From contig NZ_LT934425.1 of assembly GCF_900232105.1 (NCBI RefSeq), forward strand, positions 3,990,001 to 4,022,000: DNA of 32,000 nt, written 5' to 3'. Source of the DNA: Candidatus Kuenenia stuttgartensis (GTDB lineage: Bacteria > Planctomycetota > Brocadiia > Brocadiales > Brocadiaceae). Under the pieces are notes generated by a model. It was given only the letters and a program-made list of their open reading frames with translations. It ran no database searches and was not told the DNA's origin. Both the position numbers and the translations under genes were made by a program. Position 1 is the first letter of the stretch; each line of letters begins with the position of its first letter. Shown here one piece after another: positions 3,701-31,169 of this stretch.

Positions 3701-3719
3701 CTAAAAAATAGGTATACCA

Positions 3720-3920
3720 ATGCAAACATTTACCGTTACCATAGCCAAGGGGGAAAAGTTTTACATTGCACAGTGCAAGGAACACTCAAATTGTTTTACT
3801 CAGGGGAAAACAATAGAGGAGGCCATTCATAATATAAAAGAGGTTATTGAGCTTATACTGGAAATCAAAAAGCCTAAAATAAAGGTGGTATTAAAAGAAG
3901 ATCTTGTAAATGCCTTGTAA
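3720..3920 (+). CDS. HicB-like (UPF0150) antitoxin-fold protein, no HicA partner
   Basis: 66 aa. FTVTIAKGEKFYIAQCKEHSNCFTQGKTIEEAIHNIKEVIEL fits the HicB N-terminal domain pattern. No HicA-like ORF is seen on either side. Confidence 0.55.
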   Translation: MQTFTVTIAKGEKFYIAQCKEHSNCFTQGKTIEEAIHNIKEVIELILEIKKPKIKVVLKEDLVNAL

Positions 3921-16611: not shown

Positions 16612-18069
16612 TTACCCCTGGTTGACAAGCTCACCCAGTCTAATATGCTTGCGCATTACAGCATCGATATCCTCCATGTATCTCCCGTCCGCAGGGTAAC
16701 ACTGAGTACCATGAATATGCATGTCCAGCCCGTCAAGCTCTTCTGCTTCAGATACCCTGATACCGATGGTATGTTTTAGTCCAAAGAATATGACGAAGCC
16801 CAGTCCACCTGCCCATACTATGGCGGTGGCGAAGGCGATGAGCTGGGCAAGAAACTGCTGGCCGGAACCAACGATCAGCCCACTTACTCCTCCATATGAA
16901 CCGTCGGCAAAAATCCCTACGGCAAGAAGCCCCCACAACCCATTAGCGCCGTGCACAGATACCGCACCAAGGGGATCATCCACTCTAAACTTACGTTCAA
17001 CAAGCCACACCGAGCCGCACATCAACAAACCGCCAACTAACCCTATAATAACGGCAGCCCATGGCGCAATGAACGCACATGGCGCCGATACAGCTACAAA
17101 ACCTCCCAGTGCGCCATTACAAGCCTCCGCTATATCCGCTTTTCTAGATTTCCAGTAGGTATATAATACGACAATGACAGCGCCTGAAATACCGGCAAGG
17201 AGGGTATTGGCAGCAATAATTGAAGACCGTAATTCCGATATTGCGAGGGTGCTGCCAGCATCATAAGCAAGCCACCCAAAGGCTAAAACAACGGTGCCAA
17301 TAAGTACATAGGCAATGTTGTGTCCATGGATATGGTTAGAAGAGCCGTCCTTATTAAATTTTCCGATTCTCGGACCTAGCGCCCATGCACCCATAAAGGC
17401 ACAGATTCCACCAATTGCATGGACTACTCCAGATCCGGCAAAGTCCTTGACTCCCACCCCCAATTTTAACTTAGCAAGCCATCCTTCGCCCCATATCCAG
17501 TGGCCGTAGAATGAATAAGCAAATGTATACACGAGAAGCCCTGCGATTAAAAAGGCGGAAAACTTAATCCTTTCTGCAACAGCGCCGGCAATGATGCTGC
17601 CAATAAAAGTGGCAACAACCGCCATGAAGGTAAAGAGCAGAATGGTCTTTACATCATACGTATCTCCTAAAAGCATAAAGCCGCCATAACCTATAAAGGG
17701 ATTACCTTTATCAAGGCCTGACGCCAAGTGAGAACCGCCGAACATAAATGCAAAACCAAATAGCCAGAAAATAAAGACTCCCGCCGTTGTAGCCATAAAG
17801 CAATGAGCCATGTAGCTAAGCATATTTTTGGAGCGAACAAGCCCGCCAAGCAGCATAAACCCGGCCTGCATAAAGAGAATAAGAAACGCCGCCACCAATA
17901 TCCAAACAAAGTTTCCTGAAGTGCTCAAGCCTTCGAAGCTTTGCGTGAACGTGAATGCGCCACTGGGATCGCCTGCCTGCACACAGTTTGCCCATAGGAA
18001 AAACATAGTAACGCTGCAAAAAAGGACCAAGCCAAAGCGACTCATCTTGATCCTGCACATATTCTGCAT
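16612..18069 (-). CDS. amt: ammonium transporter (Amt family)
   Basis: 485 aa with a signal peptide and multiple TM segments. Twin-His contexts are DFAGSGVVHAIGG and DDPLGAVSVHGANG. The C-terminal GLDMHIHG resembles AmtB GLDVNSHG. AAGGAG lies 7 nt upstream of the ATG. Confidence 0.92.
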   Translation of the reverse strand: MQNMCRIKMSRFGLVLFCSVTMFFLWANCVQAGDPSGAFTFTQSFEGLSTSGNFVWILVAAFLILFMQAGFMLLGGLVRSKNMLSYMAHCFMATTAGVFIFWLFGFAFMFGGSHLASGLDKGNPFIGYGGFMLLGDTYDVKTILLFTFMAVVATFIGSIIAGAVAERIKFSAFLIAGLLVYTFAYSFYGHWIWGEGWLAKLKLGVGVKDFAGSGVVHAIGGICAFMGAWALGPRIGKFNKDGSSNHIHGHNIAYVLIGTVVLAFGWLAYDAGSTLAISELRSSIIAANTLLAGISGAVIVVLYTYWKSRKADIAEACNGALGGFVAVSAPCAFIAPWAAVIIGLVGGLLMCGSVWLVERKFRVDDPLGAVSVHGANGLWGLLAVGIFADGSYGGVSGLIVGSGQQFLAQLIAFATAIVWAGGLGFVIFFGLKHTIGIRVSEAEELDGLDMHIHGTQCYPADGRYMEDIDAVMRKHIRLGELVNQG

Positions 18070-18112
18070 TTTAAATCTCCTTTATATACATAATGCTATA
18101 AATAATTTAGCA

Positions 18113-18213
18113 TATACTCAATCAGACTGAAATCACTGGTTTCTGACATGCGCATTCATTGCCTTCTATACTCAATCAGATTGAAGCCGCTGGCTTCCGT
18201 CTGATTGAGTATA
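18113..18213 (-). promoter_or_regulatory. three copies of a 14-nt element (two direct, one inverted) between the PII gene and amt; strong hairpin with an alternative pairing partner
   Basis: TATACTCAATCAGA at 18113-18126 and 18167-18180, with the exact complement TCTGATTGAGTATA at 18200-18213. The 19-nt spacer contains its own stem, GAAGCC-GCT-GGCTTC. Confidence 0.45.
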
Positions 18214-18324
18214 TATTGTGTAGCATATGCCCGTTTACAAACTTTTCTATCACTAAACGCGTATATTTTATACGTTACTTTTTATTTAATCGTAGAGCGT
18301 TGTTTAAAATCTGACGATGTTTTT

Positions 18325-18771
18325 TTACTTTGGAAAAACTTCGTTCAGGGAAGCACGCTCTTTTTTGAGACTCTCAACAGCCTTCATATCCCCCGATTCT
18401 TTTGGAGATAATTTTACAACCCTTCCGTTAGCGCTAATGGCATTATGACCAGTTTCGCCCGTGCGTATGCGACAGGCTGATTCCACATGAGTCACAAATA
18501 CTTTTCCATCGCCAATAACCCCTGTTTTTGCCTCTTCCATAATTATTTTGATTGCCGTCTCCAATTCTGCTTCCGGGACTACAACCTCGAGTTTTATCTT
18601 TTTGTGTAAATCTACCATATATTCTCTTCCACGCCATACCCGTGTCTTACTGATTTCACTTCCTTGCCCTCTGATTTCAGTAACATGCATTCCCATTATT
18701 CCCGTTTCCTGCAACATAGAACTAACCGCCATAAAACGTTCAGGGCGAATAATTGCCTCTATTTTTTTCAT
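18325..18771 (-). CDS. PII-family nitrogen regulatory protein with Trp at the T-loop Tyr51 position and a ~36-aa C-terminal extension
   Basis: MKKIEAIIRPERF...MHVTEIRGQG...RVWRGREYMVDL...KLEVVV...KTGVIGDGKVFV...RIRTGE is collinear with GlnB/GlnK. It is 148 aa against the usual ~112. Confidence 0.85.
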   Translation of the reverse strand: MKKIEAIIRPERFMAVSSMLQETGIMGMHVTEIRGQGSEISKTRVWRGREYMVDLHKKIKLEVVVPEAELETAIKIIMEEAKTGVIGDGKVFVTHVESACRIRTGETGHNAISANGRVVKLSPKESGDMKAVESLKKERASLNEVFPK

Positions 18772-18810: not shown

Positions 18811-19242
18811 TTAAGGGCAGACGTCCACAATCTTTAAAACCTCACTTTGTCTCGTAAGTGGCGTCCCTTCAGAAAAAACGTGTTCCTGCTTTGGCGTCAA
18901 TGATACCCATCTGCCATCTTCCGTTATTATATCTTTTTTAATTATGCCTGACTTTAACCGCAACGCATATTCGTATTCACAGTTATTTCCATCTTCTTCA
19001 TGTAAGAATCTGCTTATGTTCCGCAATGCATCGTCTACTGCGTTTTCTTCTAAGACAACTTCTATCTTTACATTCTTTATTATATCTACTACGTACTCGT
19101 CATCGCGCCAAAAGACAGACCTGGTTGCTATTTGGTCTTGATCTTTTATATACGTCTTTATTACCGGATGTCCAATTTCTCCGAAATAATTTTCTAATAT
19201 CTGTACGGCACCTGGCTTTATAAATGCGGATATTTTTTTCAT
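18811..19242 (-). CDS. highly diverged PII-like paralogue lacking the nucleotide-binding B-loop
   Basis: It aligns by eye with the neighbouring PII (MKKI.A.I.P; FWRDDEYVVDI vs VWRGREYMVDL; VKIEVVL vs IKLEVVV). HEEDGNNCEYEY replaces TGVIGDGKVFV. It shares the C-terminal motif DGRWVSLTPKQE / NGRVVKLSPKE. Confidence 0.6.
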   Translation of the reverse strand: MKKISAFIKPGAVQILENYFGEIGHPVIKTYIKDQDQIATRSVFWRDDEYVVDIIKNVKIEVVLEENAVDDALRNISRFLHEEDGNNCEYEYALRLKSGIIKKDIITEDGRWVSLTPKQEHVFSEGTPLTRQSEVLKIVDVCP

Positions 19243-19308: not shown

Positions 19309-19325
19309 GCGCAACTGCAGTACCA
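19309..19325 (-). promoter_or_regulatory. sigma54-type -24/-12 promoter upstream of the PII-like/PII/amt genes
   Basis: The minus strand reads TGGTAC-TGCAG-TTGCGC. GG and GC are at the exact consensus spacing (TGGCAC-N5-TTGC) with one mismatch. The -12 element is ~70 nt upstream of ATG 19242, and a sigma54 activator gene is adjacent. Confidence 0.55.
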
Positions 19326-19582
19326 ATAGTATAAAAAAATAAAAAAGTCGCTAAGAAGTTTTCTAAGTGGTTTCAAATATAAGATTTATTTGCAGAAGAG
19401 CTGTGCTTCAAAAGCAAATATCAAATATATACTTTTCGGGCAATAACATCTTAAAAAAGGGTAATATTTAATGTGAAAGAGATATAAACCTGTAACACGT
19501 AATTGTTTATAAAAAAATCGGGCATGAATGGCATATTCGGGCGTTTATGCACCAAAAGAATGAGTTTTTACCCTGCCACTAA

Positions 19583-20977
19583 TTAATCCTTGAAGGTATC
19601 CTTGTTTATGTTATATTTCTTCATTTTCCGGTAAAGGGTTTTTGCGTCGATACCGGAAATCCTGGCAGAAGAGTCAATTCGTCCTTTGCATTGTTTTAAA
19701 AGTTTCATTATATACAGGACTTCGCACTCTGATAAGAAGGTTTCCATGTCGATATTGGTAACATGGTCATTAGGGGTATTAACGAATGCTTCTTTCTGTT
19801 GTTTTTGGTGGAGTATTGGCATATCAACCTCGTTAATTATATTGTCTTTTGCCATAATTACTGCCCTCTCTGTCAAGTTCTCGAGTTCCCTGACATTGCC
19901 AGGCCAATGGTATGACATCATGATATTAAGGGCATTTTGAGAGATAGATTTAATATTTTTTTTAAACGCTTTATTATATTTTTCGATAAAGTGCAATACA
20001 AGCAAAGGGATATCTTCTAATCTTTCTTTCAAGGGCGGCAATTGAATGGGAATAACATTTAAACGATAGTATAAATCTTTTCTGAAACCCCCTTCTTCCG
20101 ATAAGTTATTGAGGTCTTTATTGGTGGCGGCAATAACCCTTACGTCAACCTTTATTGTCTTATTTCCGCCAATCCTTTCGAAAGATTTCTCCTGCAATAA
20201 CCTGAGAAGTTTTGTTTGCATAGAAAGAGGCAAGTTCCCCATTTCATCAAAAAAAACCGTACCTTTGTTTGCATGTTCAAACTTGCCTGTCCTCTGTTTT
20301 ACAGCGCCGGTGAAAGCGCCCTCTTCATGTCCAAAAAGTTCTGTTTCCAGCAGCGACTCAGGCAATGCACTGCAATTTATGACGACAAAAGGAGCATCTT
20401 TCCTGCTGCTGTTGTGATGAACAGCGTGCGCTATAAGCTCTTTACCTGTGCCCGTTTCCCCGGTTATCAGTATCGTAGCGTCAGTGTCTGCCACCTGCAT
20501 GATCAGGTCATATATTTGCCGCATTCTGTGCGACCCCCCTATTATATTGCCAAAGCTAAACCTCTCTTCCAGTTCCTTTCGTAATGCCCTGTTTTCTATT
20601 ATCAGATTTTGTTTTTCAAAGGCGCGTTTGATGACCAGTCTCAACTCCTCTGCAGAAACTGGTTTCGTGAGATAATCATAAGCGCCTATCTTTATCGCTT
20701 CCACAGCAGTTCTCACGCTGCCATATGCAGTCATCATAATCAAAAATACTTCCGGATATTCAAGCTTTAATTGTTTTAATAATTCAAACCCATCCATTTT
20801 AGGCATTTTAAGGTCTGCAATAACCAGATCATGCGGCGATTTTCTATAAATACTCATCGCCTCCAAACCATTAGACGCCGTACTGATCTCGTATCCTTCG
20901 CTGTCCAGAACACTTTTAATACTACCGAGGACGTATTCGTCATCCTCCACCACCAGTATCTTTTTTTCCCCAACCAT
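19583..20977 (-). CDS. sigma54-dependent response regulator (NtrC family: REC + AAA+ + Fis-type HTH)
   Basis: REC domain (VVEDDE, DLVIADLKMPKMDG, MMTAY), Walker A GETGTGKE, GAFTGA loop (EEGAFTGA), WPGNVRELEN, and a C-terminal HTH (ISGIDAKTLYRKMKKYNI). Confidence 0.93.
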   Translation of the reverse strand: MVGEKKILVVEDDEYVLGSIKSVLDSEGYEISTASNGLEAMSIYRKSPHDLVIADLKMPKMDGFELLKQLKLEYPEVFLIMMTAYGSVRTAVEAIKIGAYDYLTKPVSAEELRLVIKRAFEKQNLIIENRALRKELEERFSFGNIIGGSHRMRQIYDLIMQVADTDATILITGETGTGKELIAHAVHHNSSRKDAPFVVINCSALPESLLETELFGHEEGAFTGAVKQRTGKFEHANKGTVFFDEMGNLPLSMQTKLLRLLQEKSFERIGGNKTIKVDVRVIAATNKDLNNLSEEGGFRKDLYYRLNVIPIQLPPLKERLEDIPLLVLHFIEKYNKAFKKNIKSISQNALNIMMSYHWPGNVRELENLTERAVIMAKDNIINEVDMPILHQKQQKEAFVNTPNDHVTNIDMETFLSECEVLYIMKLLKQCKGRIDSSARISGIDAKTLYRKMKKYNINKDTFKD

Positions 20978-21203: not shown

Positions 21204-21572
21204 ATGAAAAACATTAAAAACGCCGGTTTTGAACAAAGCATTTATTCTGAACCAGAGGTAATAATAGATAAAGTTGTTGACAATAAGAGATACCGGTTTT
21301 GCAGGTTTCCCGCCAACGAGAATCTCTATAAGGAAATAAGCAGCATTGCCAGGCGCTGGAGAGACGGAGAAATATCTCAAACAGATGCCTCCGGGTTGCT
21401 GGAGATTGCTTCACTTCCCTACGAAAGATGGATTTTTGATATGATTGCCGACCTTGCCGAGGAGACGAAACACCTTGAATATATTGCGGATGACAATGAC
21501 TATAAGGGTGTAAAGGCGATTGCCTTCTTACAACATGGCAATGAGAGATCATATAATATCCAATATAAATAA
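21204..21572 (+). CDS. hypothetical 122-aa protein, probable sigma54-dependent gene
   Basis: ATG 21204 with AAGGAG 7 nt upstream; the track ORF from 21102 overlaps the promoter and is not credible. No TM segment, signal peptide or recognisable family. Confidence 0.6.
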   Translation: MKNIKNAGFEQSIYSEPEVIIDKVVDNKRYRFCRFPANENLYKEISSIARRWRDGEISQTDASGLLEIASLPYERWIFDMIADLAEETKHLEYIADDNDYKGVKAIAFLQHGNERSYNIQYK

Positions 21573-21601
21573 AGCCCTTGCATACTGAATCATAGCGGAA
21601 A

Positions 21602-24600
21602 CTATGCATCAGTTTTTAAAATCGGCAGTAGTATCTGAAAAGTGGTTCCCTCATTAAGGGTGCTTTTGATGCCGATCTTTCCGGCGTGTTCCGTTATAAT
21701 ATTGTAACATATCCATAAACCCAACCCTGTGCCGGTCCCTTTTTTCGTGCTAAAAAAGGGCTCAAAAATATTTGGCAAATCTTTTTCCCTTATTCCGCAT
21801 CCGTTATCGGCAAACTCAATCTGTAACTGATTGTTTTTTGCTTGTGCAGTTATATTAATAGTTCCGCCGTTTGGCATTGCGTCAAGAGAATTGAGTATAA
21901 GGTTTGTAAACACCTGTTCTAATTGGTTGGAATGGCATCTTATGCAGGGAATATTTTTGTCAATCGTTTGTTTTACCGTTATTTTTGACTGAGAAAGTTT
22001 CTTCTGTAATAAATTCACGACATTTTGTATGTGATAATTAATATTATGATCGCCTTTTTCTTCCATTATATGCAGGTTAGAGTCTAACAAACTCCTTACA
22101 ATTCCCGCTATCCTGTAAATGCCGTCCATGACGAGTTCCACATATTTCCTTTTCTCATCCTTCTCCCCCATTCTCTCCAGCAACAATTGCAGGTAATTAA
22201 TAATGCCTTCCAGCGGGTTATTGATCTCATGCGCAACGCTTGAGACGACCCTGCCTGTTGAAGCCAGCTTTTCCGCCTCTAACAGTTGCGATTCCAGACT
22301 TTTTTCCGCCGTAATATCCCTGTAAACGGACCTGATGGCGGTAATTCTGCCATTATCATCACAAATATGATTATCGTTCAGGCTGACGTCTATAATGCAT
22401 CCGTCTTTTTTTATAAGTTGTAGTTCTGGTCCCTTTACAAGCTGTCCGCTCAAACGTTTGGGTAATAATTTTTTCATTACTTCCCTGTTTTTTTTCGTTT
22501 GAAAATCGAAGATATGCCTTCCTATAAGTTCCTCTTTTTTATATCCTAAAATCTCTGCGCCTGTTTTATTGCAATTGATTATAATCCCGTTTTCATCGTT
22601 TGTTATATAGATATCCGGAGCATTATCATAAAGGTCTTTGTATCTTTTCTCAGACTCCCTTGTTTTTTTAAATAATCTGGCATTTTCCATGGCGATGGCC
22701 AACTGTATGGCAATCTGTTTCAGTAGTGTAAAATGTTTTTCAGAAAAGCTGTTTTTTTTTGAACTTCCAAAGTTAATCGTTCCGATAATATTGCCTTTGT
22801 ATTCAAGCGGGAAACTGAGCCGCGACATTATACCTTCTTTGAGCAACAGACGATCTGGCTCAAAAGCGCTTTTTGAAGTATCTCTCACAATAAACGGCCT
22901 GCCGGTAAAAGTTACCTGCTCTAACAAGCTCCCTTCTTTTCTGAGCCAGTCATTTTCGCTAATTGCCGTGTAATCATACGATTTGTCCATGGCGGCAACC
23001 TCAACATTTTGTTTTTTTTCATCAATCAAGGCAATGCTGACCCTGTCAAACTCCATGACGCGCTTCAGCTCATTACTTATTGACCTAAATAGCATATCCG
23101 ACATAAGATCAGAAGAAACAATCTTATTAATATTGTATATAATTTCCTTCTGATGTTCCATTTCCCACATTTTGGTAATATCCTGAACCAGCTCAAGCAC
23201 ATGGGTAATATTTCCCTGAACGTCTTTGATTGGTGACCCAATAAAGTGGTAATATTTCTTCTCGTTGTCCCTGCCAATTACCAGCTTTTTTATTTCTTCT
23301 CTCTTACCGCTCATAAATACGCGTTTTGCAGTGCAGTCCTCCGTGGAAGCATTGCCGCAGCCAAAAATTTTATTACACGCATCATTTTTAAAACCATATA
23401 CCATTCCAAACTGTTCCACGAAGGGTTTGTTGCCCCACGTAATCTTCATTTCTCTATCGATGAGGCATAAGTATGCGCCTATTCCGGTCACTATCATATC
23501 GAGTTTCTTTTCTTCTCTCTCCAGTTCCGCACGTGCTTTTTCAAGGTCGTTCAGCATGTACAATGTTGCTTCTCTAAAGTCTGACAATTCATTTATAAGT
23601 TTTTTTGTATGCCTCATATCCCTGGCAACGCCGACAACATTTATCACCTCTCCATCGCTGTTACGCATTATACGCCCGCAAAAATTCACAGGGATATCTT
23701 CTCCTTTATGCGTATGATACATAATATCGTAATCCTTTAATACATCTTCCTTCCAAAGATCACTCCAGCTCCGGTTCGCAATGGGGTTGTCTTTGTCTCT
23801 CAGGATCATATCTATATTATTGCCAATTAACTCCTTTTCTTCATACCCTAACAGATCGAGCATTGATTTATTTACGGTTTTTATCCTGCCATGTTGGTCT
23901 ACCACAACCAACGTATCGATCATGCTTTCAATTAAATTTTCCACATAAGCCTTTGACACAGTAGTCTTCTGCATATCTTCTGTCATTTTGTTTATAGAGG
24001 TAGCCAGCATTCCAATTTCGCCCCCTGAGGAAAGATGTATCCTCTTGTCAAGATCACCGTCGGCAATGGCGGCCATTACACGTGATATTTTTGAAATGGG
24101 GCTTGTAATCAACCTTTTTGTCAATAAGTATGTAATAAAAACAATTGCGGCAACAGAGACCAGTGCAATACAGATAAGTATTATTATGTTTGATTTCACG
24201 CTTGCATGAATAAGTCTTAATGGCGCTATGACGCTTATCGCTCCCCACAAATTGCCCTCCTTATATGCCTCATTCTCATGACCGGGAATGGTTGTTTTTC
24301 CTGCATGCCCTCCGTGGCATCCGAGACAGGACTTCTTCATATAGAGTGGGGCAATATAACGAAATATTTTTTCATTATTTATGCCAAACGACTCACCACA
24401 ATACGCATCATGTGGTTTCTGTTCTTCCATGTTTTTCAAGACGGCTTCTTCCAAATCATCCGGGTGGTTATCTGTATTTATGTGTTTCAGTGCTATCAGC
24501 CGAACCGTGTATGGTCTGTTTTCGTTGATGGTGTTGGAAAATTCCGCGCAGATTTCTGAAGGGTGCAAATGTATAAAAACCGTATTGCTGCCAGCGCGGC

Positions 24601-24796
24601 CAGTATTGAAACTATTCTGAGCCTCTGCTAAACGACTGTGGATCATTTCTATTTGCTTAACAAGAATGTTTGCATGTTTTTTTATTTCGTCTTCCAGCAA
24701 ATAGTCTTGCCTTTTAATGATCAGTGTAAAGCTTACCCCCAGTACCAGTGGTACAAAAAGGCTGATTGATAAGATATATTTAGCGCCCAGTTTCAT
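21602..24796 (-). CDS. multi-sensor histidine kinase: periplasmic CXXCH (Tll0287/DUF3365-like) domain, TM, HAMP, PAS-like repeats, GAF, HisKA, HATPase
   Basis: 1064 aa with an N-terminal TM. The periplasmic segment carries RLIALKHIN..PDD.E...YRYIAPLYMKKSCLGCHG...GNLWGAISV (CLGCH at 24314-24328). A second TM, HAMP (GDLDKRI...EIG.L..SINKM), GAF (RVSIALIDEKK...IGTINFGS), H-box SSVAHEINNPLEGI and the ATPase motifs DNGCGI and GTGLGL follow. Confidence 0.9.
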   Translation of the reverse strand: MKLGAKYILSISLFVPLVLGVSFTLIIKRQDYLLEDEIKKHANILVKQIEMIHSRLAEAQNSFNTGRAGSNTVFIHLHPSEICAEFSNTINENRPYTVRLIALKHINTDNHPDDLEEAVLKNMEEQKPHDAYCGESFGINNEKIFRYIAPLYMKKSCLGCHGGHAGKTTIPGHENEAYKEGNLWGAISVIAPLRLIHASVKSNIIILICIALVSVAAIVFITYLLTKRLITSPISKISRVMAAIADGDLDKRIHLSSGGEIGMLATSINKMTEDMQKTTVSKAYVENLIESMIDTLVVVDQHGRIKTVNKSMLDLLGYEEKELIGNNIDMILRDKDNPIANRSWSDLWKEDVLKDYDIMYHTHKGEDIPVNFCGRIMRNSDGEVINVVGVARDMRHTKKLINELSDFREATLYMLNDLEKARAELEREEKKLDMIVTGIGAYLCLIDREMKITWGNKPFVEQFGMVYGFKNDACNKIFGCGNASTEDCTAKRVFMSGKREEIKKLVIGRDNEKKYYHFIGSPIKDVQGNITHVLELVQDITKMWEMEHQKEIIYNINKIVSSDLMSDMLFRSISNELKRVMEFDRVSIALIDEKKQNVEVAAMDKSYDYTAISENDWLRKEGSLLEQVTFTGRPFIVRDTSKSAFEPDRLLLKEGIMSRLSFPLEYKGNIIGTINFGSSKKNSFSEKHFTLLKQIAIQLAIAMENARLFKKTRESEKRYKDLYDNAPDIYITNDENGIIINCNKTGAEILGYKKEELIGRHIFDFQTKKNREVMKKLLPKRLSGQLVKGPELQLIKKDGCIIDVSLNDNHICDDNGRITAIRSVYRDITAEKSLESQLLEAEKLASTGRVVSSVAHEINNPLEGIINYLQLLLERMGEKDEKRKYVELVMDGIYRIAGIVRSLLDSNLHIMEEKGDHNINYHIQNVVNLLQKKLSQSKITVKQTIDKNIPCIRCHSNQLEQVFTNLILNSLDAMPNGGTINITAQAKNNQLQIEFADNGCGIREKDLPNIFEPFFSTKKGTGTGLGLWICYNIITEHAGKIGIKSTLNEGTTFQILLPILKTDA

Positions 24797-24805
24797 AGAT
24801 TATAT

Positions 24806-26425
24806 TTATTTTGGTTTTTTTAAAGCGTAAAGGTCTTCTTCCATTTTTTTCATCTTTAATTCCCTGCCGACAGCTACTTTTGCAAAGTTCTCCAATTGTT
24901 CGGCTTTTTTCTTGAAATCATCCCGCGATTTTTCCAATTCCGAGGTTCTTTTCTTCACATCTTCTTCAAGATTTCTCTTTATGTCCTCCAGTTCCCTTGT
25001 TCTGTCTTTTATTTTGTCCTGTAATGCCGCATTCAAGTCCTGAACTTTTGTGATTTTAACAAAGTCAAGCCATGATGTGACGTCTGCATATTCACTGATA
25101 TTTAATCCCTTAACCTCTTCTTCGGTGCTGATTCTAATGCCTACCAGTTTCTTCATACACCAGAAAAATAAAAGTCCCAATGAAAAAGCCCAGGCAAATG
25201 CCACAATAATTCCCAGACATTGCACGCCAACCTGTAAAAGGCGGCTGAAGTTTGTCATTGAAAATGCAGACACGGGAGTAAACAAGCTAACGGCCAGGGT
25301 GCCCCAGACGCCGCAAAATCCGTGGACGGGAACCGCCCCCACCGGGTCGTCCACTCTTAATATCTTTTCGATAAAATCCTTAGCCAATATTGCGATGATG
25401 CCTGCGCATAATCCAACTATACATGCATATACGGGGCTCACCCTGCTGCAACCTGCGCCAATGGCAACGATTCCCCCCATGATTCCTAAAAGTATTTCTG
25501 CGGCGTCCAATGTTTTGTTTTTCAGTTTTCTGAAAACTGCAGCAGCAACACCCGCTACCGACCCAGACAAGGTTGTATTGATAATTACCAACCCGATGCT
25601 GGTATCAGCCTGCAAAAGAGCCCCTCCGTTAAAACCAAACCAGCCAAACCACAAAAAAAATGTACCTATTGTGGCAAGTGGTAGATTGTGTCCGTACATC
25701 CTGTTCACGGTGCCATCAGGATTAAACTTTCCGGTCCTCGGCCCCAGCACAATGGCGCCCGACAAAGCAATCCATCCGCTTACAGAATGGACTACCGTAG
25801 AACCAGCAAAATCTATAAATCCGAGCCTTTCAAGCCATCCATACTGCTGGGTATGCAATAAATGTCCCCATGCCCAATGGCCAAAGACGGGATAAATCAG
25901 GCAAACAACAACAATGGTCGTACAAATATGAGTTAACAGTTTTGCTCTTTCGGCATAAGCGCCAGATGTAATAGTGGCTGCGGTACCTGCAAATACCAGT
26001 TGGATAAAAACAAAGGCATATCCCAGGGAGGTTAGATGAGTATCAATACCATATAACAGAAAATTACTTATGCCGATATAGCCGTTATAGCTCACGCCAA
26101 ACATAATCCCAAACCCTACGATAAAATATGTTATGGAACTTATAAGAAAATTCAATATATTTTTTATGGAAACGCTTATGGCATTTTTTGCCTGTACTGA
26201 GCCAGCTTCATATGCCGTAAAACCCACCTGCATGAAAAAAACCATGCTGGCAGCGACAATAATCCAGATAAAATCAAGTTTTTTCTGGATTAATTGCAGA
26301 GATGTTTCCTCATTTTCAGCATGAACATTATAATGCGGGTAAAAAACTAATGCGGTCGCTATAATGCAGGCAAAGATAATTATTATTTGCCTTTTGTGCC
26401 TGTTATCGCTTTGTATGTTACTCAT
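24806..26425 (-). CDS. Amt-family protein with a ~92-aa C-terminal coiled-coil extension (candidate ammonium sensor/transceptor)
   Basis: 539 aa. The Amt core has twin-His contexts DFAGSTVVHSVSG and DDPVGAVPVHGFCG. The conserved cytoplasmic GLDxxxHG is changed to GLNISEYA. The tail QDLNAALQDKIKDRTRELEDIKRNLEEDVKKRTSELEKSRDDFKKKAEQLENFAKVAVGRELKMKKMEEDLYALKK is heptad-like and highly charged. The stop lies 9 nt before the kinase ATG. Confidence 0.88.
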   Translation of the reverse strand: MSNIQSDNRHKRQIIIIFACIIATALVFYPHYNVHAENEETSLQLIQKKLDFIWIIVAASMVFFMQVGFTAYEAGSVQAKNAISVSIKNILNFLISSITYFIVGFGIMFGVSYNGYIGISNFLLYGIDTHLTSLGYAFVFIQLVFAGTAATITSGAYAERAKLLTHICTTIVVVCLIYPVFGHWAWGHLLHTQQYGWLERLGFIDFAGSTVVHSVSGWIALSGAIVLGPRTGKFNPDGTVNRMYGHNLPLATIGTFFLWFGWFGFNGGALLQADTSIGLVIINTTLSGSVAGVAAAVFRKLKNKTLDAAEILLGIMGGIVAIGAGCSRVSPVYACIVGLCAGIIAILAKDFIEKILRVDDPVGAVPVHGFCGVWGTLAVSLFTPVSAFSMTNFSRLLQVGVQCLGIIVAFAWAFSLGLLFFWCMKKLVGIRISTEEEVKGLNISEYADVTSWLDFVKITKVQDLNAALQDKIKDRTRELEDIKRNLEEDVKKRTSELEKSRDDFKKKAEQLENFAKVAVGRELKMKKMEEDLYALKKPK

Positions 26426-26729: not shown

Positions 26730-27662
26730 CTAAAAACGCTTCTGATAAAAATGGCAATAGGGTTGTTTCCCGGTTTTATGATAATAGTCCTGATGATAAT
26801 CCTCGGCAAACCAAAATTGCCCGGCCTTTTCCACGGTGGTGGCTATTTTGTAGCCTTTATCCTTAAGAATATTGATCAGTTTTTCGGCAGTTTTCTTTTG
26901 TTCCTCTGAATTATAGAAGACGGCGGAACGATACTGGTAGCCGATATCGGGTCCCTGACGATTGATCTGAGTGGGGTCGTGGATTTCAAAAAATAAACGC
27001 GTAAGTTCCTCATAGGAGACAATGGATGGATCAAAGACCACTTCTACAGCTTCGACATGGCCTGTGGCTCCCGAACAGACTTCCTCATAGGTAGGATTCT
27101 TCTTTGTGCCGCCGATGTATCCGGAGGTAGCTGAAATAACACCCTCTTTGTCCCCGAAGTAATGCTCCACACCCCAGAAACAGCCGCCGGCGAAGATGGC
27201 CTTCTCCGTATTCACGACCTTCGTCTTTTCAGCCGATATGAAATTCAGTGAGAGAGAATTCACGCAGTGGCGGGTGTTCTTTTTGGTGAGGCCTTCACCC
27301 AAAAAGACATGTCCGAGATGGGCGCGACAATTTTTGCAGACTATTTCAGTACGTATGCCATCGGAATCGAGGTGCCTTTCCACGGCGCCGGGAATTTCTT
27401 CGTCAAAGCTGGGCCAGCCGCATTGGGCGTCAAATTTATCATCGGAGCGATATAAAGGCGCGTCACAGCGCTTGCAGGTGTATGTGCCCTTTACATCGTG
27501 ATAATAATATTTTCCGCTGTAAGGGCGTTCAGTGCCTTTGTGGACGATAACGCGTTCTTCTTCGGGAGTTAAGGGATTGACCTTCATTTTCTTATCCTGA
27601 GCATTAAGGTTTAGGGTTATGAACAAACTTAAACTAAAAAAGAGAATGATTTTCTTCTGCAT
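26730..27662 (-). CDS. msrBA: exported bifunctional methionine sulfoxide reductase, MsrB-MsrA order
   Basis: ATG 27662 with AAGGAG 10 nt upstream and signal peptide MQKKIILFFSLSLFITLNLNA. MsrB is shown by two CxxC motifs (CKRCDAPL, CKNCRAHLGH) plus RHCVNS, and MsrA by GGCFWGVEHYF. Confidence 0.9.
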   Translation of the reverse strand: MQKKIILFFSLSLFITLNLNAQDKKMKVNPLTPEEERVIVHKGTERPYSGKYYYHDVKGTYTCKRCDAPLYRSDDKFDAQCGWPSFDEEIPGAVERHLDSDGIRTEIVCKNCRAHLGHVFLGEGLTKKNTRHCVNSLSLNFISAEKTKVVNTEKAIFAGGCFWGVEHYFGDKEGVISATSGYIGGTKKNPTYEEVCSGATGHVEAVEVVFDPSIVSYEELTRLFFEIHDPTQINRQGPDIGYQYRSAVFYNSEEQKKTAEKLINILKDKGYKIATTVEKAGQFWFAEDYHQDYYHKTGKQPYCHFYQKRF

Positions 27663-28169
27663 ACTATTTTCGCTCCTTATGAAATTTTCCATGCCCAAAT
27701 GGTCAGCTTGCCCCGATGAAGCCGGATTTTAAGCCAACCAGAGGGAAACGATAAAGGGCTGCTGGTTTTGTTGTTTTAAGGGTGACGCATCCGGACTCCC
27801 TCCCCTGCCGGAAGAATTATACGGTTAAAAGGTAGAAAGAATATCAAATATTGAACAATGAATAAAGAATGCCGAAGGATAAGAGAACTTCGTAATTCGA
27901 AATTCCCTGAAGGTTGTTGAGAAGGGCAACCGCTAATGAACAACAATGAACGTGAATCTTCATTCAAAATTCAAATAATTTGTCTCGCTTCAATCTTTCC
28001 TAACATTTTATTATTCTTCTTGCTGAAGCATGAGAATAACGCATGGACGGATTTTTCAGAAGGCTAAAATGTTACAAAATTTTAAATATACCCAAAATAT
28101 TTATTTTAACAAAGTAATGTAATAAACTTAAAGAACTGTTTATTCTGCAATAGACTTTATCTCCTGCAA

Positions 28170-30845
28170 TCAGTTCTTGTGCTCAAACGATTTTGTTAAA
28201 TGTTCAAAGCTCATATTCACCATTACCGCATTATGTGGAATTAAAACATATTTCCAGGGTTTCCCTCCATTGGAAATAGTAAAATCTGTAGCAACCTTAC
28301 AATACTCTAAGGCTGCCTGGGCTTTTCCCTGAACATCTTCCGATTCAATATCTGCCTCTTTCTTCGTTTCTATAAGATAAATAGCATCTTTTGTTTCCAC
28401 GACAAAATCAGGGTTGTATTGCCTTGAATTGTGCTTCCAGTATAGGTGGAATTGATTAGATGCAGGCCTTAGCCACTTAAGAACTACTTTGTCCTGCTCT
28501 AAAATGACTGCAAAATCTTTTTCTGTCTTGGAATCAAATTTATACAGATTGTGGCATGCTTTTTTGAAACCACTAAATACCTTATTAGGAATGGCATTGG
28601 TTGGAGTGATTGTCTCGGTAAAATGATGAATGCTGTCTTTCGTGTATTTTGAAAAATTATGTTCTTCAATCCTTGTAAAAGGCTTTACCATTGGCTTTTC
28701 ATAGCTTGGCGCTTCACAGTAAAAATGTTGCTTCATCTGGGAATAAATATAACTTCCAATCTCTTTTTTGTGAAATTGCACAACATTCATCAGTTTATCG
28801 TCGTCAAGATATGCCCTGAATTTCTCAATTGCCTGACCAGTTAATCTAAAAAGCAATTCAGTCTGTTCGTCATAATCTATTTCAGGGTAATTCATGAGTT
28901 CATTAACAATGATATTTTCCGGACCGTCATGTATGCCCCTGCCCTTCCCGCTTATAATATCAACACTGTTTTCCTGTTCACGGAGCTTTTTTACTAAAAT
29001 TTCTTCCGACACCGGTTGGTAATTGAGACTCCTGGTATCAAGGTCAAAATCCTTAAAGCCCGACCTTACTTCATTGCTTTGCTGAATGGTGATTCTTGGA
29101 ATTTCTATTATATTCTGTAAAAAATCATGTACCACCGCTTCATAGGCATCCTCAACTTCTTTTATCATCTCTGCAGTAAATAAATTTTTCTGAGGAGTAC
29201 TGTAAATCTTTTGTTTTATTCTTTCTACAGCTATTTGTTTGATTTCTGACCTTGTCAATTCATTGACATTGGTTACGGTATTGTTTAGTCCCGGAAGTGT
29301 TGAAAGAATCGTCTTTCTGACTTCCAAGTTAATCTGGGCTTTTTGTCTCTGTTCAGGCTCAACAATAAGCCCAATCTTCCTTTGCTCTTCATCAAATTTT
29401 TGTTCAACGTTTGAAGTGGAGGTAATTACCTCTTTTTGTTGACTGATTTCCTGTGGATCAATTTCAATAATATTTTGCCTTTTAATGATAGAATCGGGTT
29501 GATTGGCTGCGTCAATTATCTCCTGAAATTTATCATGGGCTACAATCGTAAGTTTATCCACTTTATCAACACCCGTTCTTTTTCCATACGGCAAGCGTAA
29601 CCCCCTGCCAATAGTCTGTTCCCTCAAAGTCATAGACGTAGCCGTTCTTAAGGGAATAATCGTATAGAGATTAGTTACGTCCCACCCTTCTTTCAGCATA
29701 TTGACATGGATAACAATTTCAATTTTATTTTCTGGCTTTTCCAAAGAAATCAGTTGTGCAATATTTTCTTCTTTTTCTTCCCCTGATTGGTTCGAGTGGA
29801 TTTCCATTACCTTATCGGCATAATAACCTTCAAAAAATGCGTTTGAAATGATCAACTGCTTTAATTTGCCGGCATGGGTTGTATCCTGTGCAACAACCAG
29901 CACAAAAGGCTTTACCGCTTTTACTCTATTATCCCGCGCATAGATATCCAAAGCCACTTTCGTGTCTTCATGGATACGAATGCCGTCTTCCAGTTTTATC
30001 CTGTCCAGTTCATCAGCGGAGTATTGTGAAGGATTAAAATCTTTACGGGTAGCCACTGCCGGTTCCTTTACAAAACCGTCCTGAATAGCCTTCGCTAATG
30101 AATATTCAAACACGACATTTTTAAACTTAATAGGCCCTCCGCTTCGTTCTATTTGGGGTGTCGCTGTAAGTTCCAATCCTAAAATAGGGTTTAATTCATT
30201 AATAACCTGCATGCCTCTGGCTGCCCGGTAGTGATGTGATTCGTCCATCAGCAAAACCAGGCCATCGAGGTTTGAAAGGTAATTGAAATAAGAATCGCCT
30301 AAATATTCTGAAAGCCTTTTTACGCGTGGAAGCTTGCCGCCCTTCGTTTCGGCATTTATCTTGGAGATGTTAAAAATGTTGATATGAATATCAGTTATGA
30401 ACATTTTTGTCTGGCGAATTTCATTATAATTATCGCCGGTAATAATACGGGGTTGGTTATGAACAAACTCCCCAATGCCCTGAAATACGTATTTTGGGCA
30501 ATTCGGATTGGAAAAGTCCTCAATGAGCTTATTATAAATGGTAATATTCGGCGCTAGTACGAAATAGTGCTTTATGCCCTTTGAAAGATATAAATAAGCG
30601 ACAAATGCCCCCATTAAGCGCGTCTTTCCAACACCAGTGGCTAAAGCGAAACAGAGAGAAGGGAAGTTTCTTTCAAAGTCAGCACAAGCAGGATAGGCGC
30701 TTTTGACTATCTCCAGTGCCGCGAATAAATCGCCATTTTTCTGAAGGGTCAATTTATCCGTCAGCTCTGCCAGTATATTCAGGCTGTCTGCCTGCGGCAA
30801 GCGAAGGCTTAAGCGATTCTTGATGGTATTTGCTATGCGATTCAT
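28170..30845 (-). CDS. res: type III restriction enzyme Res subunit (SF2 helicase + C-terminal PD-(D/E)xK nuclease)
   Basis: 891 aa. Motif I LATGVGKTRL, motif II LLMDESHHY, motif VI QTIGRGLRLPYG, and a C-terminal nuclease-like NPDFVV...IYLIETKKE. Confidence 0.85.
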   Translation of the reverse strand: MNRIANTIKNRLSLRLPQADSLNILAELTDKLTLQKNGDLFAALEIVKSAYPACADFERNFPSLCFALATGVGKTRLMGAFVAYLYLSKGIKHYFVLAPNITIYNKLIEDFSNPNCPKYVFQGIGEFVHNQPRIITGDNYNEIRQTKMFITDIHINIFNISKINAETKGGKLPRVKRLSEYLGDSYFNYLSNLDGLVLLMDESHHYRAARGMQVINELNPILGLELTATPQIERSGGPIKFKNVVFEYSLAKAIQDGFVKEPAVATRKDFNPSQYSADELDRIKLEDGIRIHEDTKVALDIYARDNRVKAVKPFVLVVAQDTTHAGKLKQLIISNAFFEGYYADKVMEIHSNQSGEEKEENIAQLISLEKPENKIEIVIHVNMLKEGWDVTNLYTIIPLRTATSMTLREQTIGRGLRLPYGKRTGVDKVDKLTIVAHDKFQEIIDAANQPDSIIKRQNIIEIDPQEISQQKEVITSTSNVEQKFDEEQRKIGLIVEPEQRQKAQINLEVRKTILSTLPGLNNTVTNVNELTRSEIKQIAVERIKQKIYSTPQKNLFTAEMIKEVEDAYEAVVHDFLQNIIEIPRITIQQSNEVRSGFKDFDLDTRSLNYQPVSEEILVKKLREQENSVDIISGKGRGIHDGPENIIVNELMNYPEIDYDEQTELLFRLTGQAIEKFRAYLDDDKLMNVVQFHKKEIGSYIYSQMKQHFYCEAPSYEKPMVKPFTRIEEHNFSKYTKDSIHHFTETITPTNAIPNKVFSGFKKACHNLYKFDSKTEKDFAVILEQDKVVLKWLRPASNQFHLYWKHNSRQYNPDFVVETKDAIYLIETKKEADIESEDVQGKAQAALEYCKVATDFTISNGGKPWKYVLIPHNAVMVNMSFEHLTKSFEHKN

Positions 30846-30854
30846 TTTTTGTCC

Positions 30855-31169
30855 TTAGGCAATGCTATTATCAAAAATATCTTCTTTCAGTAAACGGCTT
30901 CCATGCAGTACCGTAACGATCATTACTTTATCTTTTGCTTCATCATACCGGTAAATTATCCGATAATTGCCCATAATCAATTCCCGATACGGCGTATTTG
31001 GAAATTCCGGTAAAAAACGTCCCGCATTGGGGAATAATTGCAATCTTTCTGTGGATTTAAAGATATTTTGGATAGTATATTGTGCGTATAAAAGGGAATC
31101 TCTTGCTATATAGTCATAAATACCTTCTGAATCTGATATGGCTCTTTCAGACCAGATTACTGTTGCCAT
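30855..31169 (-). CDS. RelE/ParE-family type II toxin
   Basis: 104 aa. ...LQLFPNAGRFLPEFPNTPYRELIMGNYRIIYRYDEAKDKVMIVTVLHGSRLL is the classic ParE/RelE C-terminal pattern. It overlaps the upstream antitoxin by 13 nt. Confidence 0.8.
   Translation of the reverse strand: MATVIWSERAISDSEGIYDYIARDSLLYAQYTIQNIFKSTERLQLFPNAGRFLPEFPNTPYRELIMGNYRIIYRYDEAKDKVMIVTVLHGSRLLKEDIFDNSIA

Follow-up and report, generated by a model that had tools for sequence, protein, structure and literature searches.

Within a 32,000-nucleotide (nt) stretch of the genome of Candidatus Kuenenia stuttgartiensis (contig NZ_LT934425.1, positions 3,990,001–4,022,000; hereafter the window), we analyzed the gene amtb_1, which encodes a 539-residue protein of the ammonium transporter (Amt) family with a C-terminal tail, and the histidine kinase gene that follows it. 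The Amt-tail protein is probably an ammonium receptor of the Ks-Amt5/Sd-Amt1 kind that works with an unattached kinase, and we estimate the probability of this reading, taken together with the full stepwise mechanism described below, at about 0.6. That the Amt-tail protein and the adjacent kinase are functional partners is highly probable. An earlier note on this DNA had raised the possibility of a split Amt–kinase ammonium sensor. This interpretation is now supported by the phylogeny of the receptor clade, by synteny, and by the association of the tail module with kinases throughout its family. Coordinates refer to the window, and all features lie on the minus strand unless otherwise noted.

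In the proposed mechanism, the Amt-fold membrane domain would bind NH4+ in a membrane-embedded N1/N2 pocket, and the signal would exit through a connector (GLNxxEYxDVxSWLDF...RTxELE) into a helix of ≈85 residues, the final ≈55 of which would constitute a conserved “T module” (...LENFAKVAVGRELKMKKMEEDL...). The T module would couple non-covalently to the kinase encoded 9 nt downstream, possibly at kinase residues 403–428, ahead of its second PAS domain (PAS2). The kinase would integrate ammonium with at least one more signal, received through a Tll0287-like haem-c domain and PAS/GAF inputs, and would phosphorylate the adjacent NtrC-type regulator. The regulator would then activate the sigma-54 promoter of the nrp4-nrp3-amt_4 genes, switching this transporter set on when ammonium is plentiful. 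In this scheme, we infer ammonium binding, the lack of transport, the physical contact between tail and kinase, the phosphotransfer partner, and the dependence of the promoter on the regulator.

The amtb_1 gene (KSMBR1_3722, UniProt A0A2C9CKL7; 24806..26425, minus strand, 539 codons plus stop) was identified by translation of the open reading frame (ORF), by its match to Pfam PF00909, by exact-sequence look-up, and from a published gene table. In that table (Table 1 of Smeulders et al. 2020, PMC7438415), A0A2C9CKL7 is listed as amtb_1 or “KSMBR1_3722-HK”, and A0A2C9CJU7 as amt_4 or KSMBR1_3716; locus tags 3716–3722 agree with the seven genes of the cassette found in the window. Exact look-up assigned six of the cassette proteins to Candidatus Kuenenia stuttgartiensis, and the identical 539-residue product was called on 201 contigs. 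The gene was described as an Amt “with histidine kinase domain” (PMC7438415). A Pfam search of the 539-residue product found no HisKA, HATPase_c, GGDEF or MCPsignal domain, and the published label is not literally right: the kinase is a separate gene, the next one downstream.

The Amt-tail ORF ends with a TAA codon at 24806–24808, followed by the 9-nt junction atataatct (24797..24805) and the kinase ATG at 24796; the interval of the earlier note, which began at 24797, takes in this gap. Read directly, the two ORFs are in one frame and are separated by two stop codons (TAA ATA TAA TCT ATG), the second of which lies inside the junction. No GGAGG-like Shine–Dalgarno sequence was present in the 25 nt upstream of the kinase ATG; such sequences are found at the downstream genes nrp4 (GGTGGG), P-II (AGGAGG) and amt_4 (AAGGAG). 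The short gap and its lack of a Shine–Dalgarno sequence are thus as previously described. However, the tight junction is not universal among the orthologous loci, since the gap is 7 nt and in another frame in Scalindua, and 139 nt in a third lineage (locus L003).

The Amt core and its connector

The Amt core (residues 43–430; 25136..26299) was delimited from a gap-free alignment to Ks-Amt5, the ammonium sensor histidine kinase of K. stuttgartiensis (kuste3690/KSMBR1_3866; PDB 6EU6; PMC5764959), and from a table of functional sites with roles taken from the published work (PMC5764959, PMC11152129). The Pfam family Ammonium_transp spans residues 53–449 (E = 3e-105; 352.8 bits, against a cut-off of 23.2), and TIGR00836 from NCBIfam matches at 370 bits (cut-off 343). 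The core retains W186, the Phe gate (F145/F265) and the twin histidines, H213 (in VVHSVSG) and H368 (in VPVHGFCG). Both histidines are invariant across the alignment of relatives, bearing out the earlier observation that the pore histidines are kept.

The identity to Ks-Amt5 is 49% over 475 residues with zero gaps (BLASTP), at a constant offset of +42, so that the published residue roles transfer directly. The N1/N2 ligand set corresponds to Q66, E73, N89, N92, F93, T151 and S154: Q24, E31, N47, T109 and T112 of Ks-Amt5 are Q66, E73, N89, T151 and S154 here, and D50 and T51 are N92 and F93. The pore-blocking residues F27, Y30 and F34 correspond to F69, Y72 and S76. The vestibule serine (S227 of Ks-Amt5) is A269, with alanine also found in three of the eight orthologue clusters, and loop 5 has the same long form, of 20 residues, as in Ks-Amt5. 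The signature proposed for ammonium receptors, Q-X6-E-X15-N-X2-D-F/T-X54-60-T-X2-S/T (PMC11152129), is matched at six of seven positions (Q66-X6-E73-X15-N89-X2-N92-F93-X57-T151-X2-S154), the seventh being changed from D to N. This position varies (D, E, V, I or L) among 87 anammox fusions of Amt to a histidine kinase (Amt-HK), and is D in one orthologue of the Amt-tail protein (P0008). The other Amt in the window, amt_4, lacks the N1/N2 signature entirely.

Ranked against solved structures, the protein is closest to Ks-Amt5 (6EU6; 475 bits), followed by Sd-Amt1 (8QJ3; 312 bits), Af-Amt1 (182 bits) and E. coli AmtB (≈130 bits). Ks-Amt5 and Sd-Amt1 are the only Amt proteins that have been shown experimentally to be receptors (PMC5764959, PMC11152129). 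Eight orthologue clusters were found, with 78–99% identity and lengths of 534–541 residues, and the tail is present in all of them. The next relatives, at 49–60% identity, are nearly all Amts fused to signalling modules: ≈100 are Amt-HisKA-HATPase proteins of ≈680 residues, one of which is Ks-Amt5 (P0101), with a few Amt-PAS fusions besides; fusions to methyl-accepting chemotaxis protein (MCP) modules occur at greater distance.

In a neighbour-joining tree (400 columns, 300 bootstraps), the tail-bearing Amts are monophyletic (100%), with the Amt-PAS fusions as their sister group (68%). The two together join the Ks-Amt5 clade (77%), inside a clade with 96% support whose other sampled members bear fused kinases or MCP modules. 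Judged by its sequence, the Amt core belongs to the ammonium-receptor clade, and the simplest reading would be that a fused receptor lost the covalent link to its transducer.

The earlier note had pointed to an altered cytoplasmic motif, GLNISEYA (from residue 440), which stands where AmtB has GLDxxxHG. This substitution was confirmed, and the second Amt in the window does have GLDMHIHG, but it is not peculiar to this protein: it is common to all sensor Amts of the Ks-Amt5 type. Comparison of the C-termini delimited a cytoplasmic connector (residues 431–480, EEEVKGLNISEYADVTSWLDFVKITKVQDLNAALQDKIKDRTRELE; 24986..25135) that is shared with the Amt-HK and Amt-PAS fusions and is 84–92% identical among orthologues. 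Within it, GLNISEYADVTSWLDFVKITKVQDLNAALQDKIKDRTRELE matches GLNVAEYEDVASWLDFIRITRLQDINTILEKRVQEKTADLQ of Ks-Amt5 residue for residue, and likewise the Amt-PAS fusions. Past the RTxEL sequence, the architectures split into the H-box of a dimerization and histidine phosphotransfer (DHp) domain, a PAS domain or, here, the tail. By this comparison, GLNxxEY is a signature of the receptor clade and part of its signal-output connector.

At the other end of the protein, residues 1–42 (26300..26425) form an extension with one hydrophobic helix (residues 6–27 in the AlphaFold2 model) that resembles a signal peptide. This extension is not present in Ks-Amt5, with which the BLASTP alignment begins at residue 43, and is only 29–57% identical among orthologues.

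The tail and its family

The T module comprises residues 481–539 (DIKRNLEEDVKKRTSELEKSRDDFKKKAEQLENFAKVAVGRELKMKKMEEDLYALKKPK; 24809..24985), as defined by its match to a profile built from 35 non-Amt tails. AlphaFold2, run with a 32-row alignment (mean predicted local distance difference test score, pLDDT, 82), modeled residues 451–535 as a single continuous helix (pLDDT 63–77), with a low-confidence linker or hinge at 442–459 ahead of the tail helix. The possibility that the tail is disordered, which the earlier note had allowed for, is thus not borne out by the model. Charged residues make up 52% of the tail, the hydrophobic periodicity peaks at 3.5–3.55 residues, and heptad a/d occupancy is 0.67, versus 0.565 in shuffled sequences (p ≈ 0.03). 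The description of the tail as charged and heptad-like therefore stands, and it is predicted to be helical, but the coiled-coil signal in its sequence is modest. The distal part (residues 481–530) is 76–92% identical among orthologues, compared to 81–92% for the core and 29–57% for the N-terminus.

No known family was found over the tail in Pfam, NCBIfam or the PDB, beyond generic coiled-coil noise and a weak match to a NosR-type linker. The BLASTP alignment to Ks-Amt5 continues ungapped into the H-box region. An origin of the tail as a degenerate DHp domain was rejected by hhalign against the DHp and catalytic (CA) domains of the 87 Amt-HK fusions (probability 0.15%), and derivation from its own kinase was also rejected (best BLASTP E = 2.6). 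The weak match involves residues 459–513 of the Amt-tail protein, and residues 267–340 of P0243, which align to the linker at ≈116–194 of NCBIfam NF053512, a family of NosR-type response regulator c-di-GMP phosphodiesterases, at 22–28 bits, far below the cut-off. A helix related to the tail may thus serve as an internal linker in some fused proteins.

The last 59 residues were made into a profile and searched against 1.84 billion representative proteins, yielding 529 matches at E ≤ 1e-3; a word-indexed homologue search with the same profile gave only four fragments. The match ended within 30 residues of the C-terminus in 148 of 149 proteins that were re-scored locally (median 6 residues). The T-module consensus is LExxVKxRTxELExxxxELxxKxxxLExFxKVxVGRELKMxELKKEIxxLK. 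The profile of the 35 non-Amt tails scored the Amt ORF of the window at 72.5 bits (E = 5.5e-22), stopping four residues short of the ORF end, with no other match below E = 1 in the six-frame translation. Ten proteins bearing the T module (T-proteins) were scanned with Pfam and consisted of sCache- or dCache-TM-HAMP (TM, transmembrane segment), PAS, PAS-GAF-PAS or HisKA_7TM-PAS, with the tail unannotated in all ten.

A scan for the pattern GRELKM[IV]E in one genome per GTDB species found at least 566 loci, of which 80 were taken for analysis; the ORFs behind the counts that follow were called crudely, and the sample is biased towards this tail variant. The analyzed loci came from Patescibacteria, DPANN archaea, Geobacter/Desulfuromonadaceae, Acidobacteriota, Nitrospirota, Gammaproteobacteria and Methanosarcinales. 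There were 119 T-bearing ORFs in 79 loci, and tandem arrays of two to seven in 18 loci. A Pfam census of 117 T-proteins gave PAS (≈42), HAMP (25), GAF (9), dCache (8) and REC (7), as well as PocR, HisKA_7TM, MASE3, CHASE and 6TM_PilS; these families are input modules that are normally found N-terminal to kinases. HisKA, HATPase_c, GGDEF, EAL and MCPsignal were absent from the 25 families listed, and a hidden Markov model (HMM) of the kinase core matched none of the 119 ORFs. We conclude from these searches that the tail belongs to a previously unannotated, widespread C-terminal module of sensor proteins that lack an output domain.

Kinases are strongly enriched next to these proteins. An ORF on the same strand starts within 300 nt of 116 of the 118 plus-strand T-bearing ORFs, with a median gap of 15 nt and many gaps of −4 or +1 to +5. 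Among 90 neighbours that did not themselves bear a T module, Pfam found HATPase_c in 40 and HisKA in 38. By the kinase-core HMM, the immediate neighbour is a kinase in 38 of 95 cases (40%), versus 33 of 685 (4.8%) for other genes in the same loci (odds ratio 13; Fisher p = 1e-19). The tail-bearing Amts themselves are linked to kinases outside the window as well, a point that the earlier note had proposed to check: the same kinase is the next gene in all seven loci fetched, from three lineages.

The partner kinases often carry a “head” motif, A-x-[LFM]-N-[ILMV]-[LMF]-[ED]-D, at their start or just ahead of a PAS domain; examples are RRALLNILEDxxxEK and RLALLNMLEDTEEAR. It is present in 28 of 38 partner kinases versus 11 of 34 other kinases in the loci; elsewhere it occurs in 5 of 102 PAS kinases of the generic kind, in 7 of 570 ORFs that do not encode kinases, and in none of 111 Amt fusions. 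The head usually lies 133–149 residues ahead of the kinase core, i.e., one PAS domain away. In several kinases from Acidobacteriota and Proteobacteria it is repeated three to five times at an exact spacing of 21 residues, or three heptads. (Such repeats were seen at the N-terminus of short kinases with one or no PAS domain in loci L030, L043, L067, L070, L083, L087 and L088.)

In the kinase adjacent to amtb_1, the best match to the head HMM in the six-frame translation of the window is a divergent motif in the linker between the first and second PAS domains (residues 403–428, ELSDFREATLYMLNDLEKARAELERE; 23513..23590). This match, EATLYMLNDLEKAR, has a marginal score (8.0 bits, E = 0.07); the segment is conserved in every kinase orthologue. 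We regard residues 403–428 as no more than a candidate site at which the T module might dock.

Tentatively, since we would give it somewhat short of even odds, two-component signalling could make general use of an unannotated plug-and-socket system, of which the tail would be one half, with a C-terminal T module plugging into an xALLNILED head helix. The ≈55-residue T module would let Amt, Cache-HAMP, PAS, GAF, 7TM, CHASE and MASE3 sensors attach non-covalently, the socket would be the xALLNILED helix, often in tandem 21-residue repeats, and up to seven arrayed T-sensors would let a single kinase read many inputs. Such a system would span Geobacter/Desulfuromonadaceae, Acidobacteriota, Nitrospirota, Gammaproteobacteria, anammox Planctomycetes, Patescibacteria of the candidate phyla radiation (CPR) and DPANN archaea. 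None of the papers in the library that was searched contained the motif strings LNILED, LNMLED or GRELKM; the term “split histidine kinase” is used in the literature for something else, the separation of DHp from CA domains.

A Nealsonbacteria genome has a tandem array of seven T-sensors and a Desulfuromonadaceae genome one of six, and arrays of four or five occur in Geobacter and Nitrospirae (loci L029, 3062–9762; L066, 1037–13208; L032, 5017–10922; L068, 2–8897; L041; and L021, in coordinates of those loci). The array in L029 terminates in a kinase bearing the head motif. These arrays suggest many detachable inputs into one kinase.

The kinase and its cassette

The adjacent histidine kinase (A0A2C9CKA1; 21602..24796) has 1064 residues and was identified by Pfam and exact look-up. 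From the N-terminus it consists of a transmembrane segment, a Tll0287-like periplasmic domain (residues 34–192), a second transmembrane segment, HAMP, PAS, PAS, GAF, PAS, HisKA and HATPase_c. It is thus a separate polypeptide with its own membrane anchor and extra sensor domains, as the earlier note had stated. Its orthologues, from hosts that include Scalindua, Jettenia, S. japonica and S. rubra, are 68–77% identical. The periplasmic Tll0287-like domain (PF11845, DUF3365) contains the c-type haem-binding motif CLGCH (residues 157–161; 24314..24328). Because this CxxCH motif is invariant in 12 orthologues, the kinase is likely to have a second, haem-based input (redox, NO or similar).

The PAS region of one Amt-PAS fusion (P0009) aligns to the kinase just past its HAMP domain (35% identity, E = 7e-30). 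We had considered a Rosetta-stone argument from these fusions, but dropped it, since generic PAS kinases reach ≈33% identity to the same kinase. A further architecture in the anammox lineage, Amt-PAS-PAS-HisKA-HATPase, was found in a metagenome contig, where it is broken by frameshifts (locus L008, 2–2643). The tail-bearing Amts have their closest sister in its Amt domain. Downstream of this fusion come genes for a REC protein and a REC-ATPase; it is shorter, its regulators differ from those of the cassette in the window, and it is a third architecture rather than a fused version of the present pair.

The gene order Amt-tail, kinase, small gene on the opposite strand, sigma-54 regulator, P-II-like protein of 140–143 residues, P-II and Amt of 483–485 residues is kept in all seven of the loci fetched for three tail-bearing Amt clusters, from three lineages: Scalindua sp. 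(L001/L002), GCA_009612875.1 (L003/L004) and Kuenenia (L005–L007). The flanks are unrelated. The small gene (21204..21572, plus strand), which lies between kinase and regulator, encodes 122 residues and recurs in L001 (14832–15200) and L003 (14939–15307). The proteins predicted from these three copies are highly similar to one another and had no Pfam or NCBIfam match; an overlapping minus-strand ORF of 131 residues (21214–21609) is probably spurious.

The regulator (19583..20977) is an NtrC-type sigma-54 response regulator of 464 residues (REC, AAA+ sigma-54 interaction and HTH_8 domains by Pfam), and occupies the same place in all orthologous loci. Downstream of it, a sigma-54-type −24/−12 promoter, TGGTACTGCAGTTGCG, lies at 19310..19325, ≈65 nt upstream of the nrp4 start. 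Its GG-N10-GC element is kept as TGGCACTTTTATTGCG in Scalindua (L001) and as TGGTACTTTGGTTGCA in L003, within an intergenic alignment that is ≈60% identical. A window-wide scan for the sigma-54 consensus found no enrichment (14 matches, 15 expected), and the promoter call rests on its position and cross-species conservation. Three GCCCGAWW boxes, candidate upstream activator sites, are found 110–215 base pairs (bp) upstream of the −24/−12 element (19434..19542); three of the four occurrences in the window fall inside these 109 bp, and L001 and L003 retain the blocks in part. Together, the kinase, regulator and −24/−12 promoter fit a sigma-54 two-component circuit of the NtrB/NtrC type, on the basis of the Pfam matches and conservation in three lineages.

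The first gene behind the promoter, nrp4 (18811..19242, 143 residues), encodes a degenerate P-II-like protein, with sub-threshold matches to Pfam (E = 0.005) and to PRK10858 in NCBIfam (E = 4e-7); sequence sources also name the product “P-II-like”. It is followed by nrp3 (18325..18771), a P-II protein of 148 residues (Pfam E = 8e-25) with a C-terminus ≈36 residues longer than the usual P-II of 112. The last gene, amt_4 (A0A2C9CJU7, KSMBR1_3716; 16612..18069), encodes a canonical Amt of 485 residues with the GLDMHIHG motif (Pfam, site table and exact look-up), and is the likely output of the circuit. The spacer between P-II and amt_4 (18112–18214) contains an inverted repeat with 22-nt arms (18167–18188 and 18192–18213; 91% complementary, 3-nt loop), whose 31-nt unit occurs a third time at 18113–18143. 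It could act as an attenuator or a processing site, or be a small repeat element.

Published transcriptome data showed nrp4-nrp3-amt_4 to be a single transcript that is raised under nitrite limitation, a condition that the authors took to mean relatively high ammonium, while amtb_1 expression is low and constitutive (<100 reads per kilobase per million mapped reads, RPKM; PMC7438415). Such low constitutive expression is as expected of a sensor. NH4+ was found to increase phosphorylation of the Ks-Amt5 kinase (PMC11152129), an effect of the same sign as “more ammonium, more amt_4”.

Upstream of the cassette (26730–31169) are genes for an MsrB-MsrA fusion, a ResIII/helicase protein and a ParE toxin, to which a related Kuenenia contig (L005, 76–8560) adds a reverse transcriptase (RVT_1) and an N6/N4 methyltransferase. 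This neighbourhood looks mobile or defence-like, and its difference from the Scalindua flanks fits the cassette being a movable unit.

Alternatives and known systems

Several observations weigh against a receptor signalling to the adjacent kinase. The strict receptor signature is broken at one ligand (Ks-Amt5 D50 to N92), the vestibule serine is replaced (S227 to A269), and the pore-blocking F34 of Ks-Amt5 is the small S76, so that the Amt-tail protein may still transport. The signature-bearing “cluster 2” Amts include true transporters, such as the plant AMT1s. The tail has no sequence relation to the adjacent kinase, whose head match is marginal (8 bits, E = 0.07), with Tyr where the family has Asn, and the gene immediately next to a T-protein encodes something other than a kinase in 60% of cases. 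The contrast between nitrite and ammonium limitation cannot part ammonium from nitrite, nitric oxide (NO) or a redox signal at the kinase haem. We considered the possibility that the protein is a working transporter or “transceptor”, with a tail that serves trimer stability, localization (e.g., to the cytoplasmic versus the anammoxosome membrane) or self-regulation. The kinase would then only share a transcript with it and would take its input from haem-c, PAS and GAF domains of its own. The retention of W186, F145/F265 and H213/H368, the serine in place of F34, the real transporters among signature-bearing Amts and the ample sensor domains of the kinase are all consistent with this. However, the T module recurs on PAS, HAMP and Cache sensors that are not transporters and tracks downstream kinases, the protein nests in the fused-receptor clade, and its low constitutive expression is unlike that of regulated transporter genes, making a transporter unlikely.

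The tail could also signal to a partner other than the kinase, namely Nrp4, Nrp3, the 122-residue protein or the sigma-54 regulator. AmtB has a P-II protein as its canonical partner, the cassette holds two P-II-type genes along with one conserved unknown gene, and the head-like motif of the kinase is only marginal. We nevertheless regard such a partner as rather improbable, because HisKA/HATPase_c is the enriched family across the 95 neighbours of T-proteins, no P-II family is among the 25 families listed for neighbours, and the GLDxxxHG region of the P-II-regulated AmtB has been replaced. There is very little to be said for the tail as an inert remnant of an ancestral Amt–kinase fusion after loss of the kinase, which would explain why the protein nests among fused receptors and has a connector homologous to theirs: the distal tail is conserved as strongly as the membrane core, belongs to a large family of its own, and has an hhalign probability of 0.15% for a degenerate DHp/CA. 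Least credible of all is a single fused gene, split by a sequencing error or bridged by read-through. The two ORFs are in the same frame and 9 nt apart, and the published wording was “with histidine kinase domain” (PMC7438415), but the frame contains two TAA codons, the identical 539-residue product occurs on 201 contigs, the gap is 7 nt in a different frame in Scalindua and 139 nt in L003, and hundreds of unrelated T-proteins end at the same point.

A receptor with an unattached kinase is thus the preferred reading, and it would have several implications. Amt-based ammonium receptors are known from two studied cases, both of them single polypeptides; a detached version would show Amt signalling in trans, and would correct the published description of amtb_1 as having a kinase domain. 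Sensor, kinase, sigma-54 regulator and P-II/Amt operon would make up a circuit by which an anammox bacterium adjusts its ammonium uptake to supply, a question left open in the transcriptome study. If the tail can dock as a portable module, thousands of proteins without an output, annotated as “PAS domain” or “HAMP domain-containing”, would become interpretable as removable inputs to the kinases next to them, also in the reduced genomes of CPR bacteria and DPANN archaea, and sensors might be rewired to kinases with the motif pair as a natural part.

The closest known system is Ks-Amt5, which is from the same organism and Amt sub-clade, with 49% ungapped identity, the connector GLNxxEYxDVxSWLDF...TxxL, the long loop 5, and the shared N1/N2 ligands Q, E, N and T plus a conservative T-to-S change. 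In Ks-Amt5, the DHp/CA domains are fused right after the connector, whereas here the connector is followed by the T module and the end of the protein, and the kinase is a separate 1064-residue membrane protein. D50 and F34 of Ks-Amt5 are N and S here, and the signal-like N-terminal helix is found only in the Amt-tail protein. Sd-Amt1 of Shewanella denitrificans, an Amt-HAMP-GGDEF ammonium receptor (PMC11152129; PDB 8QJ3), ranks second among the solved relatives (312 bits) and is of the receptor class defined by the N1/N2 signature, six of whose seven positions are kept in the Amt-tail protein, but has a diguanylate cyclase fused via HAMP and neither a T module nor a separate kinase. Members of the ammonium receptor (AmR) class bind NH4+ at high affinity without translocating it, bulky residues in helix I blocking the pore, and are required to have a C-terminally fused transducer (PMC11152129), which the Amt-tail protein lacks. 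Judging from its sequence relationships, we infer that it works like an AmR without being a bimodular AmR. Like the AmtB–GlnK pair, it would place an Amt in nitrogen signalling via its cytoplasmic face; however, it has GLNISEYA in place of GLDxxxHG, and its neighbour is a kinase and not glnK. Such a pair is instead formed by nrp3 and amt_4, the likely output of the cassette, in which amt_4 shows both features of GlnK-regulated AmtB, the GLDxxxHG region and an adjacent P-II gene.

Transporter-fold proteins that report their substrate to a separately encoded histidine kinase are familiar from the “trigger transporters” UhpC/UhpB, DctA/DcuS and BceAB/BceS. These pairs are thought to interact mainly by membrane or PAS contacts, and we know of no shared, portable C-terminal docking module among them. 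In the present system, the coupling element would be a soluble helical tail that is also found on sensors that are not transporters. Sensor and kinase are likewise encoded as separate polypeptides in one operon in H-NOX/HahK and NosP/NahK, where the sensors are globular haem proteins without a T tail; the NahK and NosR family names appeared here only as weak NCBIfam matches. In contrast to those pairs, the partnership described here would be defined by a tail and head motif pair that extends over many types of sensor.

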